From a bacterium (GTDB lineage Bacteria; Patescibacteriota; Patescibacteriia; PEXW01): a DNA stretch of 47,785 nucleotides. The position numbers and the translations under genes were made by a program. This document shows, piece by piece, positions 22,447-32,561 of the stretch. The stretch spans positions 1-47,785 of the forward strand of contig JAUYFT010000001.1 of the NCBI GenBank assembly GCA_030689605.1. Reading direction: 5' to 3'. The stretch's first letter is position 1. The number at the start of each line of letters is the position of its first letter. The notes beneath the pieces were generated by a model. That model worked only from the letters and a program-made list of their open reading frames with translations. It did no database searches and was not told the origin of the DNA.

Positions 22447-23137
22447 CACACTCTACATTGTCGCTACGCCCATTGGTAATCTGGATGACCTTAGTGTGCG
22501 CGCGAAGGAGACATTGGCGCACGTGAGCGCCATCCTGGCCGAAGATACGCGCGAGGCGGCGAAGATTCTTACGCACATTGGCGCCCAGAAAGAACTGATC
22601 CGCTACGACGAGCATACCCGCGGCGCGCGGGAAGACGCTATCATCGGCCGTCTCCGGAAAGGTGAATCATTTGCGCTCGTGGCCGACCGCGGCACGCCGA
22701 ACATTGCCGATCCCGGTGGGCGGCTGGTGGAGCGGGTGTACCGAGAGTGCCCCGAGGTGAAGGTCGTGCCAATTCCAGGTCCATCAGCCATGGCAACAGC
22801 ACTTTCGGTTTGTGGCTTTCCGCTTCAGCAGTACACGGGCTACGGTTTCCTGCCACTGAAGAACGGTCGGCAGACTATCCTCAAGAATATGGTAGCCGAT
22901 GAGCGTCCAGCAGTATTCTTCGAGTCACCCCATAGGGTTGAAAAAGTCCTTCAATTTTTTATTGATAACTGCCCCGAGCGGGAAGTCTTTGTTGCCCGCG
23001 AGCTTACTAAAACCTTTGAGCACCTCTACCGCGGCAAACCCGCCGACGCCCTCGCCGCGCTGCGTGACGACGCCGTGAAAGGGGAGTTCACCGTGGTGTT
23101 GGGGCCGGGGGGGAGCCAGAAAGCGCTAAAGCCATAG
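22439..23137 (+). CDS. rsmI: 16S rRNA C1402 2'-O-methyltransferase
   Basis: LYIVATPIGNL, AEDTR, GTPNIADPG, FESPHR, ARELTK. Confidence 0.95.
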   Translation: MSSTLYIVATPIGNLDDLSVRAKETLAHVSAILAEDTREAAKILTHIGAQKELIRYDEHTRGAREDAIIGRLRKGESFALVADRGTPNIADPGGRLVERVYRECPEVKVVPIPGPSAMATALSVCGFPLQQYTGYGFLPLKNGRQTILKNMVADERPAVFFESPHRVEKVLQFFIDNCPEREVFVARELTKTFEHLYRGKPADALAALRDDAVKGEFTVVLGPGGSQKALKP

Positions 23138-23237
23138 AGCTGTAGTTGGGAATGCATCCAATCACTATTGAGGAGATTTAGGCTTGGCAAAGTGCTTTCA
23201 TTCGAGAGCTTTCGGCATAGGCAGGAAAGCCCCTTCC

Positions 23238-23265
23238 TTGACATTTTGGCTTCAATTCATACAAT
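23238..23265 (+). promoter_or_regulatory. Promoter of the atp operon
   Basis: TTGACA-16 nt-TACAAT. Confidence 0.65.
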
Positions 23266-23333
23266 TATTGCGCGCCATATTTTTGGCCGATTCGGCGGAA
23301 TTCCCGCAGAACCACGCATTTTCCGTTCGGTTT

Positions 23334-23597
23334 ATGGCTGATACACTGCAGAAACAGGGGTTCTGGCAAGCCCTGGGCATGGCCTGGGAGTTGGGCTATA
23401 TCATCGCCATTCCCATCGTTATCCTGGGTTTGGGGGGGCGATTCCTGGATAAGCGCTTCGATACCTCGCCTTGGCTGTTCTTGGCCGGCGTCCTCCTCTC
23501 TATCGTTCTCACCTCGTTCGGGCTGGTCTGGAAGTTCAAAAAACTGCTCAAAGATGTCGAGCAGGAAACCACGCCACCCACATCACTAAAGAAGTAA
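23334..23597 (+). CDS. AtpZ/AtpI family ATP synthase accessory protein
   Basis: ELGYIIAIP..GRFLDKRFDTSPW; directly precedes atpB. Confidence 0.85.
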   Translation: MADTLQKQGFWQALGMAWELGYIIAIPIVILGLGGRFLDKRFDTSPWLFLAGVLLSIVLTSFGLVWKFKKLLKDVEQETTPPTSLKK

Positions 23598-24338
23598 ATG
23601 GCCGAAGTCTCCCTCGCTGCCGAAACCGTATTCCACCTGGGGCCAATCCCCATCAACAACAGCGTCCTTACTACCTGGATTGTCGTCGTACTCATCATCA
23701 TTGGTGCATCGTTCCTCCGCAAGGCCAAGCTGGTGCCGCATGGGTTGCAGAACCTGGTGGAGTTTTTGTTCGACGGCGCCCTGGGGATAATGGACTCGGT
23801 CACTGGGAGCCGGGCGCAATCGGAGAAGTTCTTCCCCTTCATCTTCACGTTCTTCATCTTCATCCTCATTGGCAACTGGCTTGGCCTCTTGCCGGGGGTA
23901 GGGACGATTGGCTTCCACGAAGTGCACGAAGGCAAAGAAGTTTTTGTGCCAATCTTGCGTGGTCCAGCAGCAGATTTGAACTTCACCCTGGCGCTCGCGC
24001 TCATCTCTGTGGTGGCGACACAGGTGATTGCGGTATTTACCATCGGTATTGCCAAGCACTTGAAGAAGTACATTAACTTCAAGGATCCCATCATGGGCTT
24101 CGTCGGCGCACTGGAAGCCATGTCAGAGTTTGCCAAGATCCTCTCATTCAGCTTCCGGTTGTTCGGCAACGTTTTCGCCGGGGAAGTGCTACTCATCGTC
24201 ATCGGCCTCATCATCCCGTACATCGTTCCTATCCCATTCATGTTCCTAGAGATTTTCGTGGGTTTTATCCAGGCGTTCATTTTCGCCATGCTCACCCTGG
24301 TCTTCCTAAAAGTCGCCACCACCGCGCACGAACATTAG
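23598..24338 (+). CDS. atpB: ATP synthase Fo subunit a
   Basis: QNLVE, GNWLGLLPG, SFSFRLFGNVFAGE, IQAFIF. Confidence 0.96.
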   Translation: MAEVSLAAETVFHLGPIPINNSVLTTWIVVVLIIIGASFLRKAKLVPHGLQNLVEFLFDGALGIMDSVTGSRAQSEKFFPFIFTFFIFILIGNWLGLLPGVGTIGFHEVHEGKEVFVPILRGPAADLNFTLALALISVVATQVIAVFTIGIAKHLKKYINFKDPIMGFVGALEAMSEFAKILSFSFRLFGNVFAGEVLLIVIGLIIPYIVPIPFMFLEIFVGFIQAFIFAMLTLVFLKVATTAHEH

Positions 24339-24341
24339 CTC

Positions 24342-24394
24342 CCACCACCCCGTCCCGCTACTGCGGGACACCCCTCCTCCGGCAGGAGGGGAGG
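24342..24394. repeat. REP-like element (CCACCACCCCGTC...ACCCCTCCT...AGGAGGGG type)
   Basis: GTCCCGC/GCGGGAC and CCCCTCCT/AGGAGGGG hairpins. Confidence 0.7.
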
Positions 24395-24520
24395 CAGCAC
24401 CTAGCGATGAAGCGTTGAATCCTGAAAGTCAGAACTCAACGTTTCACCACTAACTGTACCGACCGTCCGACGTTAAACACCCAACCCTCGTCGGGGCGCA
24501 GGTACGAAAGGGAAAGTAGT

Positions 24521-24748
24521 ATGGAAGAAGCTTCAGCAAAGTTGTTCGCCGCCGCACTGGCCATTGCTATCGGTGGATTCGGTCCAGCGTTCGCCATCGG
24601 TAAGCTCGCCGCCAAGGCTATGGAAGCCATTGGCCGCAACCCCGAAGCCGCGAGCAAGATCCAGGTGCCAATGCTCATCGCCATGGCGTTCGCCGAAGCC
24701 ATTGCCGTGTACGCGCTGGTCGTTGCCCTCATCATTAAGTTCGTCTAG
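24521..24748 (+). CDS. atpE: ATP synthase Fo subunit c
   Basis: GRNPEA loop and conserved Glu in AFAEAIA. Confidence 0.97.
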
Positions 24749-24813
24749 TTCTTCGCTGACGAATCCCTCGCCAATGCTGGCGGGGGAAGGCTAGCGAGTA
24801 ACACCTCAAATTT

Positions 24814-25317
24814 ATGGAAGAGTTAGTCAAGAAATTCGGCATCGAACCCGCGCTACTCCTGGCGCAAATGCTCAATTTCGGCATTGTCCTCTTTGTGCTG
24901 TGGAAGTTCGCCTACAAGCCCGTGCTGAATGCAATGCGCGAGCGCCGCGAAAAAATCGAGAAGAGCTTAAAGGATGCCAAGGCCGTGGAACAGAAGCTCG
25001 CTGAAGCTGAACAGTTAAAAGAGGTGAAAATTTTGGAAGCTCGGAAAGAGGCGCAGCACATTATGGAGAAGGTGGAGGTAGAGAGCGAACGGTACCGCAA
25101 GCAGCGTATTGAGGAAATTGATGCCGAGCTCGCGAACATACGGAAGCACGCGCGGAACGAAATTGCCGCCGAGAAGCTGCAGGCGCTCACCGAGGCGAAG
25201 ACCGAGCTCGTGAACCTGGTGATTAGTGCTACGCAAAAGGTAGTACCGCAAGGCACAACCAAAGACCTCGACAAGAAACTAGTTGCTGAAGCTGTTGAAG
25301 AAAGTCGAAATGCTTAA
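24814..25317 (+). CDS. atpF: ATP synthase Fo subunit b
   Basis: AQMLNF TM, KFAYKP, coiled coil. Confidence 0.94.
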   Translation: MEELVKKFGIEPALLLAQMLNFGIVLFVLWKFAYKPVLNAMRERREKIEKSLKDAKAVEQKLAEAEQLKEVKILEARKEAQHIMEKVEVESERYRKQRIEEIDAELANIRKHARNEIAAEKLQALTEAKTELVNLVISATQKVVPQGTTKDLDKKLVAEAVEESRNA

Positions 25318-25339
25318 TACAAACTTCTTCCAATCATTT

Positions 25340-25433
25340 CGACCCGCCGAAGCGCACCCTCCTACGCTAAAGCTTCGGAGGGTTGCCCACCTGTTTATGC
25401 ATACACTCTCGTCCCTTAACGCGAAGGTGGGCA
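25340..25433. repeat. Composite REP-like hairpins between atpF and atpH
   Basis: ACCCTCCTACGCTAAAGCTTCGGAGGGT and TTGCCCACCT/AGGTGGGCAA stems, the latter abutting the atpH ATG. Confidence 0.65.
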
Positions 25434-25835
25434 ATGCGTAAAGCCTCTGTCCGCCAGTACGCCGAAGCTTACCTAAGCGCTGCGCAAGTTGCGCCCGTGA
25501 AGGATCGCGTTGCGGTGGCCGACCGGCTCGTACGCGCCTTGGCTCGTCAGCGGCAGCTGCGGCTCATCCCGCGCATTGCTGCCGAGCTCGAACGACTCAT
25601 CGCCGAGCAGGGCGGCCCCCTGATCGTGAAAGTGCGGAGCGCGAAGGCCCTCACAGTAACTGAAGACGCCGAACTCACGGCAAACCTAGAAAAAGCCTTG
25701 AACCAGAAAGTGAAAATCCGGCATGTGCATGAAGCCAAGCTCCTCGCAGGCGTGAAGATCCAGGTGGGGGATCGCCTCATAGATAACGCTCTGTCTAGCC
25801 GATTAACAAATCTCAAAGCTCATTTACTGCAGTAG
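25434..25835 (+). CDS. atpH: ATP synthase F1 subunit delta (short)
   Basis: RQYAEA, VRSAKAL, LLAGVKIQVGDRLID; operon position. Confidence 0.9.
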   Translation: MRKASVRQYAEAYLSAAQVAPVKDRVAVADRLVRALARQRQLRLIPRIAAELERLIAEQGGPLIVKVRSAKALTVTEDAELTANLEKALNQKVKIRHVHEAKLLAGVKIQVGDRLIDNALSSRLTNLKAHLLQ

Positions 25836-25848
25836 CGATTAGGGATGA

Positions 25849-25902
25849 GGAGTAGAAGCTTTAGCTTCTTGGTTATATACCAGAGGCTGAAGCCTCTACT
25901 CC
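25849..25902. repeat. REPIN: inverted pair of GTAG-type REPs matching the RAYT flanks
   Basis: GGAGTAGAAGCTTTAGCTTCT...AGAGGCTGAAGCCTCTACTCC, nearly identical to 29458-29510. Confidence 0.9.
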
Positions 25903-25912
25903 TAGAGAAAAA

Positions 25913-25943
25913 TAAAAAGCGCCACGAGGTTATCGCAGCGCTT
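25913..25943 (-). terminator. Terminator hairpin containing the stop codon of the antisense ORF (cassette A)
   Basis: Minus strand AAGCGCTGCGA-TAACC-TCGTGGCGCTT-TTT; identical to 29573-29603. Confidence 0.8.
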
Positions 25944-26199
25944 TCGAGCGGTTCTCCTGTATCGTTGAAATGGTGAGTACAACGATAAGTCCTAAGAAAC
26001 AGATCAGTGTTATTATCCCAGCATGTAAACGAACATCATGGTTACGGACGCCAAGCACTACAAAAGTAATGCCTACTCCTAGCCAGACTATTAGGACGAG
26101 ACAACAGAAGAGCCCAGAGATCCAATCACAAATTACGTTTACAGTTTTATCGGATTCGCTGCCCTGAAGTTGCTCATTTGAAGCATTGTCAGTGTTCAC
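25930..26199 (-). CDS. Small two-TM orphan membrane protein, antisense within the atp operon
   Basis: GGAGG-aaaat-GTG start (track start 26211); TTGACA-17-TATGTT promoter; own terminator. Confidence 0.65.
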   Translation of the reverse strand: MNTDNASNEQLQGSESDKTVNVICDWISGLFCCLVLIVWLGVGITFVVLGVRNHDVRLHAGIITLICFLGLIVVLTISTIQENRSKALR

Positions 26200-26254
26200 A
26201 TTTTCCTCCAAAATCTCGGTTTGTTTGCTTAAAACATATTCCCTCTTTCCCTCG

Positions 26255-26318
26255 CTGTCAACCCCTGAAGGGAAATGCTAGGCGCGAAAGGAATTTCGCC
26301 CCTGACCCACCTCTTCAA
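26255..26318 (+). repeat. Conserved structured element upstream of atpA (copy A)
   Basis: Homologous to 29831-29895; GCGAAA-GGAA-TTTCGC hairpin. Confidence 0.85.
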
Positions 26319-26320
26319 TT

Positions 26321-26440
26321 GTCATCCTGAGTCCCGCATGTGCGGGACGACCTGCCCGCCGAACTCGCTATGGCGAGGCAGGCGGGAGGATCTTGCCCGG
26401 AAGGCAGCACAGCAAGATTCCTCGTTGAGCTCGGAATGAC
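26321..26440. repeat. GTCATCCTGAG...AGGATCT...GGAATGAC REP-like element with a nested CCTGCCCGCC hairpin
   Basis: 36-nt hairpin 26351-26386 interrupts CGA|AGGATCT. Confidence 0.8.
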
Positions 26441-26472
26441 AGAATACAATATTTTCATCATTAACCACTCCT

Positions 26473-27963
26473 ATGCCCCATACAATTGTCGACGTTTTGA
26501 AAGCCCAGCTCCAGTCATACACCGCCGCAGCCAGCACTGCTACGGTTGGCCACGTCATTGACGTCGGCGATGGTATCGCGCGCGTGGAAGGTTTAAGTAA
26601 CGTGAAATCTAGTGAAAAAGTTACTTTCGCGTCCGGTGCCACTGGCGTCGCGCTCAATCTGGAGGAAGACACGGTCGGCATCATGATCCTCAACGGCGCG
26701 ACAGACGTGACCGAAGGTGAAGAAGTCCGCGGTACTGGCCAGGTCATGTCCGTGCCTGTGGGCGATGCGCTCATTGGCCGCGTGGTGAACCCGCTGGGCG
26801 AACCAATTGATGGCAAAGGTGCAATCAAAGCCACCGACATTTTTCCTGTAGAGCGCGTGGCGCCTGGGGTCATTACCCGCGAGTCGGTGAAGCAACCCGT
26901 GCAGACGGGTATCAAGGCAATCGACGCACTCATCCCCATCGGTCGCGGCCAGCGCGAGCTCATCATCGGCGACCGTCAGACCGGCAAGACCGCCATTGCC
27001 ATTGATACGATTATCAACCAGAAAAATAGCGGCGTCATCTGCATCTACGTGGCCATTGGTCAGAAGGCGAGTAAGATCGCGCGCATTGTCGCCGAGCTGG
27101 AGAAGCATGGCGCCATGAATCACACTATCATAGTCCTGGCGAGCGCTGCCGACCCTGCTGCGCTCTCGTTCCTCGCGCCGTACGCCGGCTGTGCCATGGG
27201 CGAGTACTTCATGAGTAAGGGCAAGGACAGCCTCGTGGTGTATGACGACCTCTCTAAGCACGCCTGGGCCTACCGCCAAGTCTCGCTGCTGCTCCGCCGC
27301 CCCCCCGGCCGCGAAGCCTACCCCGGTGACATTTTCTACCTCCACTCTCGGCTATTGGAGCGCGCAGCCAAGCTCAACCAGGACAACGGTGGCGGTTCAC
27401 TCACAGCCTTGCCAATCATCGAGACGCAGGCTGGCGACATGAGTGCGTACATTCCCACCAACGTCATCTCCATCACTGATGGCCAGATTATTCTGGAATC
27501 AGACTTGTTCTACCAGGGTCAGCGCCCGGCGTTGAACGTTGGCCTCTCGGTTTCCCGCGTGGGTTCCAGTGCCCAGCGCAAAGCCATGAAGAAAGTGGCG
27601 GGTAAGCTCCGCTTGGACATGGCCCAGTACCGTGAGCTCGCCGCGTTCGCGCAGTTCGGCTCTGACCTGGACGCCGCCACCAAGCAGCAGCTAGAGCGCG
27701 GCAAGCGCACGGCCGAGTTGCTGAAGCAGGGGATTGGTCAGCCCATGCCTATGCCCGAGCAAGTGGCGGTGCTCTACGCAGTCACGCAGGGCTACCTGGA
27801 TGATGTGGAAGTCGAGAACGTCCAAAACTGGGAGAAGAATTTCCTCAAGAGCCTCCGCACGGGTGCCAGCGATTGGATTAAGGCAATTGACGACAAAGGC
27901 GAGCTCACGCCTGAACTGGGAGAGCAGCTGAAGACCGCGCTCACCACTTTCAAGAAAAGCTAA
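26473..27963 (+). CDS. atpA: ATP synthase F1 subunit alpha
   Basis: [31 protein letters not shown]. Confidence 0.98.
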
Positions 27964-27965
27964 AC

Positions 27966-28862
27966 ATGGCCAGCACGCTCGACATCCGGCGGCGCATCAA
28001 GTCCGTCGGCAATACCAAGAAGATCACCAAAGCCATGGAACTCGTGGCTGCTTCTAAGATGCGCCGTGCGGTGCAGCAGGCTTTGGCGACACGCGCTTAC
28101 GCCAAGACGGCGTGGGACGTGCTCACCAACGTGAGTGCGGTGACGAACCGTGAGCTCCACCCGTTGCTCATTGAGCGTGAGGTGAAGCGTGTCGCGGTTA
28201 TTGTGGTTAGCTCGGATCGTGGCTTGGCCGGTGGTTTGAACACGAACGTCGTCCGCCAAACCCTCGAAGTCTTGAAAGTGCAGACAGTACCAGTCGATAT
28301 CATCACCGTTGGCACGAAAGCGGCTGATGCGTTGCGCCGCCTCAACGTGAATATCGTTGCAGCTTTCCCGAACGCGCACACCCATCCAACCGTTGCTGAC
28401 CTGCAGCCCGTGGTGAAGATTGCCATCGATGACTACATCACTGGTGTGTACGACAAAATCTTCGTGGTGTACACGGACTTTCGCTCCACACTCGTACAGA
28501 AAGCCTGGAGCCGCCAAGTCCTGCCCATCCGCAAACAGGAGCTCAAAGAAGTGTTGGATGACGTGGATAGTGCAATTAGCATGAAAGAAATTGAAGGCTT
28601 CCAGAACCCCTACCTCTTCGAACCGAATGCCGAAGCCGTGCTGGAGAAGATGCTGCGGAACCTGGTGACGAGCCAGCTGTACCAGGTGGTGCTGGAGTCG
28701 CTCGCGTCCGAGCACGCGGCCCGCATGGTCGCCATGCGCAACGCCACGGACTCGGCCGAAGAGCTCATCGAAGATCTCAATCTCACTTATAACCAAGTGC
28801 GTCAAGCCAGCATTACGCGAGAGATCGCGGAAATATCGGCTGGTAGGGCGGCGTTGGAATAA
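27966..28862 (+). CDS. atpG: ATP synthase F1 subunit gamma
   Basis: KITKAMELVAASK, SDRGLAG, ASEHAARMVAM, RQASITREI. Confidence 0.97.
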   Translation: MASTLDIRRRIKSVGNTKKITKAMELVAASKMRRAVQQALATRAYAKTAWDVLTNVSAVTNRELHPLLIEREVKRVAVIVVSSDRGLAGGLNTNVVRQTLEVLKVQTVPVDIITVGTKAADALRRLNVNIVAAFPNAHTHPTVADLQPVVKIAIDDYITGVYDKIFVVYTDFRSTLVQKAWSRQVLPIRKQELKEVLDDVDSAISMKEIEGFQNPYLFEPNAEAVLEKMLRNLVTSQLYQVVLESLASEHAARMVAMRNATDSAEELIEDLNLTYNQVRQASITREIAEISAGRAALE

Positions 28863-28864
28863 AC

Positions 28865-28922
28865 GGAGTAGAGACTTTAGTCTCTTGTCTATCAACTGTG
28901 AAGAGGCTAAAGCCTCTACTCC
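28865..28922. repeat. REPIN on the 5' side of the RAYT
   Basis: GGAGTAGAGACTTTAGTCTCT...AGAGGCTAAAGCCTCTACTCC. Confidence 0.9.
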
Positions 28923-28931
28923 GCCGGAAAC

Positions 28932-29438
28932 ATGAACCCCTACCACAATCCACCACACCTGTACCTTGATCAATCACTATACTTTGTAAGTGCGAGAACA
29001 TTCGAAGCCCAGCTGTACCTTAAAGATGGTACACGTAAACAATTGTTCGTTAAAAAGTTAAATGATTTGCTGCAAGAGTATCAGTATAAACTTTATGCCT
29101 GGGTTGTGCTTGATAATCATTACCACCTTATCTTTGAGACGAACCAGGGTGCCAAGTTGCCGAAGTTCATGCAAGCATTGCACGGCGGCACCTCTCGCGC
29201 ATTGAACCTTATGGATGGTATCGAAGGCCGGAAGGTATGGTTCAACTACTGGGATCGTTGTTTACGGGATGACGTGGATTTCAATACTCATTGCGATTAC
29301 ATTCATTATAATCCCGTAAAGCATGGTTTTGCAGAACATCCCGAAGATTACCCATTCTCAAGCTATAAAGATTTCTTAAAAAGAAAATATTATGAAATAG
29401 GTTGGGGGTACGCGGAACAAAGAATATTGAAAAATTGA
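28932..29438 (+). mobile_element. REP-associated tyrosine transposase (RAYT, Y1 HUH superfamily)
   Basis: YAWVVLDNHYHLI HUH motif, YWDRCLRD, YIHYNPVKHG catalytic Tyr, YPFSSY; flanked by GTAG REPs. Confidence 0.92.
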
Positions 29439-29439
29439 A

Positions 29440-29535
29440 GGAGTAGAATTCATAGGAGGAGTAGAAGCTTTAGCTTCTTTGTTACATACAGAGGCTGAAG
29501 CCTCTACTCCTAGAGGAATAGAGACTTTAGTCTCT
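29440..29535. repeat. REP cluster on the 3' side of the RAYT
   Basis: REPIN 29458-29510 plus single or partial REPs at 29440 and 29515. Confidence 0.88.
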
Positions 29536-29572
29536 AGTAATAAACCAAAACAAAAATCGTCCATTCCAAAAT

Positions 29573-29603
29573 TAAAAAGCGCCACGAGGTTATCGCAGCG
29601 CTT
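29573..29603 (-). terminator. Terminator hairpin containing the stop codon of the antisense ORF (cassette B)
   Basis: 31 bp identical to 25913-25943. Confidence 0.8.
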
Positions 29604-29787
29604 GGTCACCAACTTTGCCTAATCGATATTTTTGGAAATGACTTAGAATAACCATCGTCAGTAACCAGATACCAAGGACAAAGAACATAAAGCTCCATAA
29701 ACCCTTGTTGAGGTAAATACCAAGCCCACAACAGCAAAGGCTTATGAAAATGAGCGGCAGTGCTTTCAAGAGAACCTCGATTATCAA
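29590..29787 (-). CDS. Small two-TM orphan membrane protein, antisense within the atp operon
   Basis: Two hydrophobic segments; TTGACA-16-GATAAT promoter; start codon uncertain (TTG, no clear RBS). Confidence 0.5.
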   Translation of the reverse strand: MIIEVLLKALPLIFISLCCCGLGIYLNKGLWSFMFFVLGIWLLTMVILSHFQKYRLGKVGDQALR

Positions 29788-29830
29788 TTAGTTTGGTTTA
29801 TGAAGATACATTATCAATAGCTTAAGGTTC

Positions 29831-29895
29831 CTGTCAACTCCCTGAAGGGAAACGTGAGAAGCGAAAGCAATTTCGCTTCTGACCCACCTCTTCAA
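29831..29895 (+). repeat. Conserved structured element upstream of atpD (copy B)
   Basis: AGAAGCGAAA-GCAA-TTTCGCTTCT hairpin; homologous to 26255-26318. Confidence 0.85.
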
Positions 29896-29899
29896 CTAA

Positions 29900-31297
<1,398 letters not shown>

Positions 31298-31308
31298 GAA
31301 TCTTTTCA

Positions 31309-31443
31309 CCCTCATCCGGCCTTCGGCCTCCGGGGCGCTTCCAATGGGTCGCGCCCGCCTAGCGGCCCTTCTCCCAGCGGTAGAAGGGGCAATAAAAAAT
31401 CCTCCTCTCCTCGTAGGAGAGGATGCCCGAAGGGCAGGTGAGG
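31309..31443. repeat. REP-like element (CCCTCATCCGGCCTTCGGCC...CCTTCTCCC...CTCTCC..GGAGAGG...GGTGAGG type)
   Basis: Multiple GC-rich hairpins with terminal CCTCATC/GGTGAGG pairing. Confidence 0.7.
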
Positions 31444-31468
31444 TTTATCAGGCTCGCATCAAATATAT

Positions 31469-31897
31469 ATGTCTTCTCCCAAATCCCTCCACCTCACCAT
31501 CACCACCCCCGAACGCATTGTCCTCGAATCCGAGGTCAGCAGCGTGAACGTGCCCACAGTGGATGGGGAAATTGGTTTACTGCCCGATCATATCCCCCTG
31601 GTTTCGCTCCTCGCCCCAGGTGAGCTCCATGCTGTCACCACAGCAGGGGAAGAGCAAATCATGGCAGTGTCTGGTGGTTTTATAGAAGTCCGAGACAACC
31701 AGGTAGTCATCCTGGCCGACACCGCCGAACACGCCCACGAAATCGACGAACAACGCGCGGAAGAAGCTCGGCAGAAAGCCCAGCAAATCATGACCGAGCG
31801 CGCCACAGACGACGTCGGCTTCGCTGACGCGCAGGCTGCTATGGCCAAGGAGCTGGCGCGGTTGAAGGTTGTTAGAAAGAAACGGAAAAACGTGTAA
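31469..31897 (+). CDS. atpC: ATP synthase F1 subunit epsilon
   Basis: ITTPER, GEIGLLPDHIP, VSGGFIEV, ILADTAE. Confidence 0.96.
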   Translation: MSSPKSLHLTITTPERIVLESEVSSVNVPTVDGEIGLLPDHIPLVSLLAPGELHAVTTAGEEQIMAVSGGFIEVRDNQVVILADTAEHAHEIDEQRAEEARQKAQQIMTERATDDVGFADAQAAMAKELARLKVVRKKRKNV

Positions 31898-31961
31898 TAA
31901 CTATACTATTCGTAGGGAAGCTTTACAAATTCTAGAAGAAATTGTACTCTATTACATAGAT

Positions 31962-32324
31962 ATGCTGTTTAGAAAAAAGCGAAATACTCTCGATAAAGGA
32001 AGCGTACGGTATGTAATTTTTAATGAGGACGGCACTTGGTATGGTGTTGCCCTTGAATTTAATATTGTTGTTGAAGGTGATGATCAGGCAAGTATATATT
32101 TGAATCTTGTTGATGCAGTAAGAGGTTATTTAGCCGCCGCGAGGTCAAGAAAAATTCGACCAACTGTTTTGAATCAGACTGTAAGTCCAGAGTACTTACA
32201 ACTTTGGAGTGATCTTGAAAGTGGGAAAAAAATGCCGACACTCAGGAAATATTCAGAAAAAGAAGACCAGGAAGAAACGCCCGTTCAAGTCGCGACTTAC
32301 GGATTCTTCCCACAACCCGCATAA
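31962..32324 (+). CDS. HicB-like antitoxin
   Basis: WYGVALEFNIVVEGDD...NLVDAVRGYL fold pattern; adjacent to hicA; AT-rich. Confidence 0.6.
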   Translation: MLFRKKRNTLDKGSVRYVIFNEDGTWYGVALEFNIVVEGDDQASIYLNLVDAVRGYLAAARSRKIRPTVLNQTVSPEYLQLWSDLESGKKMPTLRKYSEKEDQEETPVQVATYGFFPQPA

Positions 32325-32327
32325 GCA

Positions 32328-32561
32328 ATGCCGAGAGGCTTGTTTAATTGGAATTTTAGGGACATCACAGACTTTCTTAAGGAGAGAGGTTTTGTGCATG
32401 TAAGAACCGAAGGAAGTCATTATTACTATCAGAGCCATATCGGAGGTCAGCCAAGACAAGTGCATGTACCATTTCACGGCGCGGGGGCAATTAAACCTCG
32501 AACACTAAAAAGTATTATTCTTCAATCTGGAATACCACAGAATGATTGGAAGAATAGGTGA
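32328..32561 (+). CDS. hicA: HicA family toxin
   Basis: FLKERGF..VRTEGSH, VPFHG, TLKSIILQSGI. Confidence 0.88.
   Translation: MPRGLFNWNFRDITDFLKERGFVHVRTEGSHYYYQSHIGGQPRQVHVPFHGAGAIKPRTLKSIILQSGIPQNDWKNR

Follow-up and report, generated by a model that had tools for sequence, protein, structure and literature searches.

Why should the ATP synthase operon of a bacterium carry, at two places, a short gene that points against it, and why should the ends of these two units be nearly the same while the genes inside them are not? The question is raised by contig JAUYFT010000001.1, the window analysed here, which is an entire contig of 47,785 bp from a genome called G000 below (644,183 bp, 83% complete, 55% GC). 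Its atp operon has the plus-strand order atpB, atpE, atpF, atpH, atpA, atpG, atpD, atpC, and promoter prediction over 23000–32500 places a near-consensus promoter driving it at 23238. Two of the spacers are enlarged, that between atpH and atpA to 637 bp and that between atpG and atpD to 1064 bp; both hold, in the same minus-strand order, a structured tail, a TTGACA promoter, a Shine-Dalgarno site, a short open reading frame (ORF) and a shared intrinsic terminator. A first-pass annotation of the stretch had described this succession before both atpA and atpD, and all its parts were recovered. We lean towards the view that such a cassette is a moron-like, replaceable antisense expression slot, the cargo of which is swapped by recombination within or beside short conserved ends.

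The two units are referred to as cassette A (before atpA) and cassette D (before atpD). Their terminators are predicted on the minus strand at 25905–25945 (A; stem 25945–25915, then a T-run) and 29568–29603 (D; stem 29603–29577, then a T-run), scoring as intrinsic terminators with 13 and 11 stem pairs, respectively. Between 25908–25943 and 29568–29603, 35 of 36 bases are equal, and the unbroken identical run of 31 bp noticed at the outset lies inside this match. The loops hold the TAA codons of the cargo genes: ORF-A and ORF-D both run GCG CTG CGA TAA into the terminator, so that both proteins end in ALR. ORF-A (25930–26199, minus strand) encodes an orphan protein of 89 residues, its likely start being the GTG at 26199 which follows GGAGG (an alternative TTG is at 26211); ORF-D (29590–29769, minus strand) encodes an orphan of 59 residues with the TTG at 29769, behind GAGG, as the likely start (alternative TTG at 29787). 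Each protein has two hydrophobic stretches on the Kyte-Doolittle scale, in keeping with the two transmembrane segments originally ascribed to it. The promoters predicted upstream, also on the minus strand, consist of TTGACA, a 17-nt spacer and TATGTT for cassette A (26233–26261; 10 of 12 positions) and of TTGACA, a 16-nt spacer and GATAAT for cassette D (29810–29837; 11 of 12 positions). The word TTGACAG, noted in both units from the beginning, thereby turns out to be the −35 box of a sigma-70-like promoter (minus strand, 26256–26262 and 29833–29839), and with the operon promoter at 23238 these two are the best three sites in the region scanned. Immediately upstream of each −35 box lies the tail, an imperfect palindrome of 56 bp (26263–26318 in A, 29840–29895 in D), which bears out the conserved structured element proposed there: repeat and fold analysis finds the two copies to be 86% identical and each to fold into a long imperfect hairpin.

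Within the G000 genome, terminator and tail sequences are confined to these two places. Logan contigs, an independent assembly of one DNA run, place cargo A on one continuous sequence with atpA, and cargo D likewise with atpD; in those from three DNA runs the sequence breaks off at the 31-bp repeat, and no alternative form of either cassette was seen. The pattern is therefore real and not a product of chance.

The atp operon was mapped in all 12 species genomes of the family, a single family of ultra-small groundwater bacteria within the Candidate Phyla Radiation (CPR; Candidatus Kerfeldbacteria in record titles) comprising three genera. Eight of the 12 bear cassettes, 12 in total, all of them antisense and all located at the atpH–atpA or the atpG–atpD junction. 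The latter is filled in G000, G002 (two cassettes in tandem), G006, G007, G008, G009, G010 and G011, the former in three (G000, G008, G010) of the 11 genomes with a readable junction. Four genomes of the same genus as G000 (G001, G003, G004, G005) have compact, cassette-free operons with a gap of 6–7 nt past the stop codon between atpG and atpD and of about 20–27 nt between atpH and atpA; across the family the empty atpH–atpA gap measures 14–27 nt in eight genomes and approximately 30 nt in G002. The single genome of the sister family, G012, also has a compact operon and no cassette. The terminator is present in all 12 cassettes and a canonical tail in 10, the tail being absent from G007 and G009 and degenerate in G011.

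Outside this family nothing comparable came to light. When 41 related genomes were searched with cassette A, terminator and tail matches at E < 1e-4 were confined to atp loci of the same family. In a genome collection a 26-base tail pattern was found at six loci, all on atp contigs of the Kerfeldbacteria family (their record titles read Candidatus Kerfeldbacteria in two cases, Patescibacteria group bacterium, and Gammaproteobacteria in one case). A metagenome collection yielded five loci, two of them on a contig that agrees with the G008 contig in length and coordinates and the remaining three (L031, L034, L035) 98.9–99.97% identical to the G011 locus; a viral collection gave no match to the tail pattern. 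A viral match to the terminator pattern, one sequence on three contigs, was rejected as probably a chance look-alike because its flanks are unrelated; its stem, GCGCTGCGA ... TCACGGCGC plus a T-run, is nearly equal to that of the cassette terminator. A covariance model of the tail run over 151 genomes of the class matched in G000 and G008 alone. Rfam at gathering score reported three tRNAs in the window and none at the cassettes, and at E ≤ 5 over 25800–29950 there was no meaningful match, which leaves tail and terminator without an Rfam family. The available portions of the literature on Kerfeldbacteria, on the atp operon or antisense transcription in Patescibacteria, and on REPIN and RAYT elements in CPR bacteria describe no such cassettes.

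Inside the fixed ends every cassette is different. Thirteen cargo ORFs of 36–127 codons were catalogued, two of them in the atpG–atpD cassette of G010. An all-against-all BLASTP comparison (78 pairs) detected no similarity, the lowest E value being 0.29; for ORF-A against ORF-D it was 4.2, so that the two show no detectable homology, and the same ends do occur with other cargo in relatives. Fixed ends around unrelated cargo, as first proposed from the two G000 units, are therefore real and general (12 cassettes, 13 ORFs, eight species). The interior DNA was compared in 132 combinations and in both orientations; the top local score was 16, as against about 75 for a control mutated to 65% identity. 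This control is apt for the closest pairs, in which the third codon positions of atpD are 64.5% (G000/G006) and 65.4% (G008/G010) identical while the tails are 89.7–90.8% identical. Since the tails retain about 90% identity where neutral sites retain about 65%, the scaffold is under purifying selection; since the interiors share no DNA similarity at the same neutral distance, they have been replaced and are not drifted orthologues. In all cassettes the similarity ends sharply, at the cargo-side foot of the terminator (AAGCGC...) on one side and at TGTCAA on the other.

These results bear directly on the idea of an old duplication, by which all cargo would be one family of small membrane proteins that diverged beyond recognition while the regulatory ends were kept. 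ORF-A and ORF-D do share a Cys cluster in the first of their two hydrophobic stretches, and detectable similarity is lost fast in short membrane proteins; but the interior score, at most 16 where about 75 is expected, already contradicts such descent, the cargoes are too uneven in length, five of the 13 lack any hydrophobic stretch (eight have one), and one cassette contains two ORFs. We give this explanation hardly any credence.

Composition, reading frames and ribosome-binding sites give the cargo ORFs the look of genuine genes, and of foreign ones. The longest antisense ORF exceeds that of 1000 shuffled sequences in nine of the 12 cassettes (p ≤ 0.018; the other three have p = 0.052, 0.072 and 0.229), and the interiors have 32–45% GC, compared with 55% for the genome and 55–67% for the atp genes; AT-rich islands with 37–46% GC stand out from the genome. 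A Shine-Dalgarno 4-mer precedes all 11 cargo starts examined (of 13 cargoes), as against 30 of 345 long ORFs of G000 and a within-gene background of 32 of 345, so that native ORFs show no enrichment, although the canonical anti-Shine-Dalgarno sequence is intact at the 3′ end of the G000 16S rRNA (contig C2, minus strand, about 25643). Among 5.8 billion clustered proteins and, with HMMER, 1.84 billion representatives, ORF-A matched nothing except itself, its only database entry being the same protein of 89 residues; ORF-D had no database match and the 127-residue cargo of G002 only a self-match. Pfam gave nothing above threshold for any cargo; below its cut-off, DUF4177 was reported for two soluble cargoes (in one case E = 1e-4, at 22.9 bits where 25 are required, in the other E = 0.042), and as no other DUF4177 gene is present in the genomes of the family, no internal donor was found. 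PHROGs returned nothing significant for the 13 cargoes (three marginal hits with E = 0.004–0.006 are taken as chance), PADLOC found none among them, and the best ESM Atlas scores for ORF-A and ORF-D, 0.82–0.83, are at chance level. The cargo of G011 differs from its counterpart in a 98.9% identical metagenome copy at two positions, both synonymous, a slight hint that the protein is under constraint.

The layout of the units is as regular as their cargo is diverse. From the −35 box to the start codon there are 62–69 nt in 10 of the 12 cassettes; for G010 this is counted from the tail-adjacent TTGACA (66 nt), a second TTGACA there overlapping the Shine-Dalgarno site 6 nt from the start. A −10 box resembling TAnnnT is seen by eye at a spacing of 16–18 nt in most cassettes. 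From the stop codon to the terminator stem there are 18–20 nt of mutually unrelated sequence in eight cassettes and 7 and 33 nt in two others, the stop lying inside the terminator loop only in the two units of G000. The −10 box, the 5′ untranslated region (UTR), the Shine-Dalgarno site and the ORF all belong to the variable part, outside the fixed ends. Of the earlier proposal that the ends provide promoter, stop codon and terminator, the −35 box and the terminator stand, but the −10 box varies and the stop comes from the loop in just two of 12 cases. The regular format may result from compaction to a functional minimum or from a mechanism with fixed junctions.

The two ends behave differently when examined as RNA. 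In the terminator stem, G-U wobble pairs form only in the minus-strand transcript, and G006 shows compensatory changes; both argue that the terminator belongs to the antisense gene. In the tail, 88.9% of the alignment cells pair, a single pair shows a double, compensatory change, and pairing is equally good on either strand (of 190 cells, 169 pair on the plus and 172 on the minus strand); it also carries invariant unpaired bases (CTGACC). The tail is conserved as sequence more than as covarying structure, and it may act as DNA, as plus-strand RNA upstream of atpA or atpD, or as a protein-binding site. Two other assignments were rejected: translation as a peptide (MKRWVRSE...), there being no Shine-Dalgarno site or ATG and a mixture of synonymous and non-synonymous changes between G000 and G006; and a plus-strand promoter (CTGACC, 17 nt, ATTATC), which agrees at eight of 12 positions, is absent from the promoter report and would be disrupted in two cassettes by a miniature inverted-repeat transposable element (MITE).

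Do the ends then serve the operon rather than the cargo? They might act as insulator, attenuator or processing module ahead of the alpha and beta genes, the ORFs being incidental translated spacers. This could work through interference by convergent transcription, through duplex-dependent processing of the mRNA, or through hairpins that protect new 3′ or 5′ ends; the ORF with its Shine-Dalgarno site would keep the antisense RNA full-length, and its sequence could then turn over freely or emerge de novo. Such a role would account for ends that stand only before atpA and atpD, whose subunits are needed in three copies each, and always antisense; for conservation far above that of neutral sites; and for cargo which is orphan, AT-rich and often hydrophobic, as young ORFs are. 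The operon RNA, moreover, must cross the cassettes, for no plus-strand promoter is predicted directly before atpA or atpD (23000–32500), and in genus g3 a conserved block extends from the tail through to the start codon, at atpA and atpD alike. Nevertheless, four congeners and the sister family manage without any cassette; no fixed geometry is kept, as MITEs lie between tail and atp gene in G006 and at the atpH–atpA junction of G000 and the tail is missing twice; the tail has its single compensatory pair and no strand preference; and the complete replacement of interiors, with such a range of ORF lengths and five soluble products, goes beyond the drift of a spacer. We regard an operon-serving role as unlikely, though it is the main rival. 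As an observation apart, in genus g3 (G008, G010) the 50 nt between tail and start codon are filled at both sites by a repeated GGCTTACAGC motif; the motif is met again in G003, within 166 nt inserted between its atpA and atpG.

How the cassettes came to be where they are can be followed on the tree of atpA plus atpD, ((((G000,G006)95,(G003,G005)58)98,(G001,G004)99)83,(G008,G010)100)95, which is joined by (G007,(G009,G011)), with G002 basal and G012 as outgroup. The atpH–atpA site is filled only in G000 and in the clade of G008 and G010, while G006, G003, G005 and G001 keep a homologous empty spacer of 23–27 nt; parsimony suggests two gains at this site. At atpG–atpD the tree implies at least two events, a loss followed by a regain or else two losses; G006 retains the empty-site sequence TAACCTCAT directly before atpD, as does G005. 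The compact operons of the four cassette-free congeners likewise require several gains or losses, and the tandem pair of G002 is a tandem duplication. Whole scaffolds have thus been gained, lost or duplicated several times, always antisense and at these two sites.

The scaffold parts themselves seem to have travelled. The atp genes of G002 are the most divergent of the family, its atpD having 77.5% DNA identity to that of G000, yet the G002 terminators are identical to the atpD-side terminator of G000 at 35 of 35 and 36 of 36 bases and differ from the atpA-side copy by one mismatch; and the cassette at atpH–atpA in G000 combines a tail with a g2/g3-type inner helix and a g1-type terminator. 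Taken together, the history suggests that parts of the scaffold have moved, or been converted, from one lineage to another and from one site to the other. G002 is somewhat puzzling in its own right, being assigned to the genus of G000 though its atp genes are basal in the tree, with amino-acid identities to G000 of 70% for atpA and 38–70% for atpG; its divergence could mean that the contig was mis-binned, that the operon was transferred or that it evolves fast.

The first-pass annotation had suggested a gene-capture or cassette-exchange system and had linked it to the transposase relative in the atpG–atpD spacer. This gene (28932–29438, plus strand) is an intact, AT-rich RAYT, or REP-associated tyrosine transposase, a relative of the Y1 HUH transposases (Pfam Y1_Tnp, E = 1.1e-7, 32.4 bits, cut-off 23); its translation contains HYH and YIHYNPVKH, which we take to be RAYT motifs. 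Around it, and also next to terminator A, lie REPINs, that is, pairs of inverted hairpins of the repetitive extragenic palindromic (REP) type, recognised by repeat-family and inverted-repeat analysis. One (GGAGTAGA with its palindrome, 25847–25910) abuts terminator A, another is found on the 5′ side of the RAYT gene (28863–28923), and a third, accompanied by a further half REP, fills the interval between the RAYT gene and terminator D (29456–29546). The copies at 25847–25910 and 29456–29515 are 94–97% identical and hence as nearly alike as had been stated. One Logan back-joint connects two REP halves (29537 to 28902) and probably stems from another REPIN locus.

A dedicated site-specific system would use the tail, and perhaps the terminator, as a folded recombination site, comparable to an integron attC or an IS200/IS605 end, which the RAYT or another recombinase acting on single strands would cut so as to swap cargo and to reach the sites before atpA and atpD. 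Sharp boundaries, identical in all cassettes, hairpin ends with conserved unpaired bases, the at least two independent fillings of the atpH–atpA site suggested by parsimony, the tandem array of G002 and the uniform format of the cargo all fit it, as do the RAYT gene, intact at this locus in G000 and in G011, and the REPINs which adjoin five of the 12 cassettes. The partner enzyme is another matter. Of the eight cassette-bearing genomes only two, those just named, have a close RAYT orthologue at the locus, and with the query used none was found in G006 and G002. The REPINs of G000 are REP hairpins with a GTAG-type 5′ motif, which tail and terminator are not; the sequences show no cross-match, and REPIN matches in the 41 relatives fall also outside the atp loci. 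The suggested tie to the RAYT is thus not upheld, and REP elements, whose adjacency in other copies had been proposed as a check, adjoin five of the 12 cassettes; RAYT and REPINs would rather be co-tenants of permissive atp spacers than the engine of exchange. In the metagenome copies L034 and L035 of the G011 locus the RAYT matches in two pieces, with a one-base insertion relative to G011, and the gene may be frameshifted in that population.

Tyrosine recombinases fare no better as candidates. No match to PF00589 was found in G000 (at 83% completeness); among the 11 relatives eight have a single full-length, Xer-like match, G007 has one full-length match and two fragments, G011 one partial match and G005 two fragments at contig ends. 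Genomes without cassettes, all four of them, have such matches too, and in no relative is one next to the atp operon, the nearest being a partial one about 13 kb away at a contig end of G007. There is further no common core sequence at the two cargo boundaries and no free copy of the ends elsewhere in the genome, in relatives, or in the genome, metagenome and viral scans, and the cassettes have promoters of their own. A dedicated capture device of this kind is accordingly quite improbable. What survives of the capture idea is the presence of unrelated cargo between fixed ends; genome-wide capture does not, the cassettes being restricted to the atp operon, and no integron-like integrase accompanies them.

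Integrons are the obvious point of comparison. Their cassettes contain unrelated short ORFs, many of them orphans, bounded by attC sites, imperfect palindromes of about 60 bp with the core sites RYYYAAC and GTTRRRY; the cassettes have no promoters of their own and share a common one. Unrelated orphan ORFs accompanied by an imperfect palindrome of about 60 bp, and one tandem pair (G002), are found here as well. However, promoter (16–18 nt spacing) and terminator come with each cassette, its two ends are unlike one another, an IntI-type integrase, an attI site and an array platform are all absent, and only two sites in one operon are occupied. Inspection of the tail alignment by eye reveals no consistent pair of attC cores: the cargo-side end reads TGTCAAC/T and the far end TTCAA/T/C, which reversed gives GTTGAAG or GTTGAGG in just three of 10 copies.

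Type I toxin-antitoxin loci and excludons pair a small hydrophobic peptide with a fully complementary transcript from the opposite strand. Here too hydrophobic peptides would face a complementary RNA, namely operon read-through; five of the 13 cargoes are soluble, though, the cargo is not a conserved toxin family, and no dedicated small antisense RNA gene is evident. To our knowledge REPINs do not carry passenger genes. The known REPIN-RAYT systems, as far as the accessible text of PMC3116915 and PMC3337134 describes them, resemble the locus in that G000 and G011 have an intact, single-copy RAYT flanked by REPINs in the same spacer and that REPINs abut the terminator in the five cassettes mentioned; the cassette ends, however, are not REP sequences and most cassette-bearing genomes lack the RAYT. 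Integron, REPIN and type I toxin-antitoxin definitions all fail to cover the cassettes.

Closest in anatomy, to judge from the accessible part of PMC4378225, are the morons of phages, described there as single coding regions of odd composition with their own promoter and terminator, set between genes that are adjacent in relatives; the way in which morons are acquired is called mysterious in the same source. All cassettes likewise have an ORF (two in the atpG–atpD unit of G010) with promoter and terminator, stand between genes which adjoin one another in cassette-free relatives (atpG and atpD, atpH and atpA), and differ in interior composition from the neighbouring genes. Compared with morons as portrayed there, they are unlike in residing in an essential cellular operon of eight genomes, with no PHROGs or viral tail match; in keeping the promoter-side palindrome and the terminator from cassette to cassette while the ORF differs in each; and in being invariably antisense and placed only before atpA or atpD. 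In population pattern the closest are the minimal mobile elements of Neisseria, which the available text of PMC3787668 defines as regions of variable content among close relatives between specific conserved genes. Cassette content, too, varies between fixed flanking genes among relatives; in contrast to that description, 150-nt windows of the flanking atp genes show no sign of recombination, what stays constant is a pair of short regulatory ends within the spacer itself, and the whole unit has been duplicated to a second site and in tandem.

On the replaceable-slot reading, each cassette would be a self-contained antisense transcription unit directly upstream of atpA or atpD. Its fixed scaffold consists of the 56-bp imperfect palindrome abutting a consensus −35 box and of the intrinsic terminator which presumably halts antisense transcription before atpH or atpG; the variable part comprises the −10 box at 17-nt spacing, a 5′UTR of about 30 nt, a strong Shine-Dalgarno site, the short ORF (two in one cassette) and a 3′UTR of about 19 nt. 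The partner in an exchange of cargo would be a cassette of a related lineage or AT-rich DNA of foreign origin, and no dedicated recombinase would be needed. The slot would express its small protein at a high level, and the atp genes 3′ of it would still be read from the promoter at 23238, through the cassette and on the opposite strand.

Several observations weigh against this reading. The flanks of the G000 cassettes contain no imported tract by sliding-window identity: in nearly all 150-nt windows of atpH, atpA, atpG and atpD, G000 is closest to G006 or the near relative G005, no window is closer to genus g3, and there is no mosaic, short tracts within the ends being invisible to the method. 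Exchange by recombination in the flanking genes is thus unsupported and would have to fall within the ends of 30–65 bp. The near-identical loci available, G011 and the three metagenome contigs, carry the same cargo, so that no exchange has been caught. That the cassettes are confined to atpA and atpD speaks for a functional connection with the operon which a mere slot does not explain, and the tail, missing from two of the 12 cassettes, is not essential to the unit. No homologue of any cargo was found in Pfam, PHROGs, PADLOC or the protein collections, which leaves the source of the cargo unexplained. Finally, in the Shine-Dalgarno comparison native starts were crudely set at the first ATG, and three of the cargo starts were chosen with the site in view.

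A bolder proposal, doubtful in our eyes, is that new small genes dock and are expressed at a scaffold dedicated to this purpose, the hairpin ends of which would be recognised by a candidate mechanism that swaps the cargo and also directs it to the sites before the alpha and beta genes. The scaffold would then be a gene nursery or capture device which gives newborn or foreign ORFs a consensus promoter, a terminator and a Shine-Dalgarno site of a sort hardly used by the genes of the host, located in an operon that the cell cannot silence or delete; cargo might then be expressed the less, the more the ATP synthase operon is transcribed. The locus offers, at any rate, a clean example from nature of genes being replaced while the scaffold that expresses them stays fixed, in three genera and at the same two places in an essential operon, and it bears on how moron-like units are acquired and how orphan small proteins originate in streamlined CPR genomes. 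Should the ends be recombination sites, they would define a cassette system of a new kind, and this in a phylum whose mobile-element biology is barely known; should they instead work on the operon, ATP synthase would prove to be regulated in a new way.

The genes around the cassettes are readily identified. Upstream of cassette A lies atpH, encoding the delta subunit (25383–25835, plus strand; Pfam OSCP, E = 3.2e-21). It is followed beyond the cassette by atpA for the alpha subunit (26473–27963, plus; Pfam ATP-synt_ab, E = 1.5e-82) and by atpG for the gamma subunit (27966–28862, plus), recognised through its orthologues, to which it is 82–96% identical in six genomes of g1 and g3 (G006, G005, G003, G008, G010, G001/G004) and less so in genus g2 and in G002. 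From tail D to atpD runs a leader containing AAGGA (29896–29926, plus), common to the G002 cassette which adjoins atpD; atpD itself, for the beta subunit, occupies 29927–31297 (plus; Pfam ATP-synt_ab, E = 1.2e-73).

The spacers also house repeats of other kinds. Between tail A and atpA lies an unrelated MITE, TGTCATCCTGAG ... GGAATGACA (26319–26462), with partial copies on contigs C10, C12 and C18. A MITE family with TGTCATCCTGAG ... CTCAGGATGACA ends is present in the atp spacers of G000 and of the relatives G006, G008, G009 and G010, and a third family, with CCAAGTGCAGG ... CCTGCGCTTGG ends, populates the same spacers; partial copies are found on other contigs. The spacers between atpB and atpE (24339–24520, about 180 bp) and between atpD and atpC (31298–31468, about 170 bp) contain GC-rich palindromic repeats; neither contains cassette ends in G000, and within the latter a minus-strand, terminator-like hairpin is located at 31423–31403. 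Just 3′ of atpC there is a pair of AT-rich ORFs (31965–32561), the second of which (32328–32561) matches Pfam HicA_toxin (E = 4.5e-12); the first (31965–32324), which has no Pfam match, may be its HicB-like partner.

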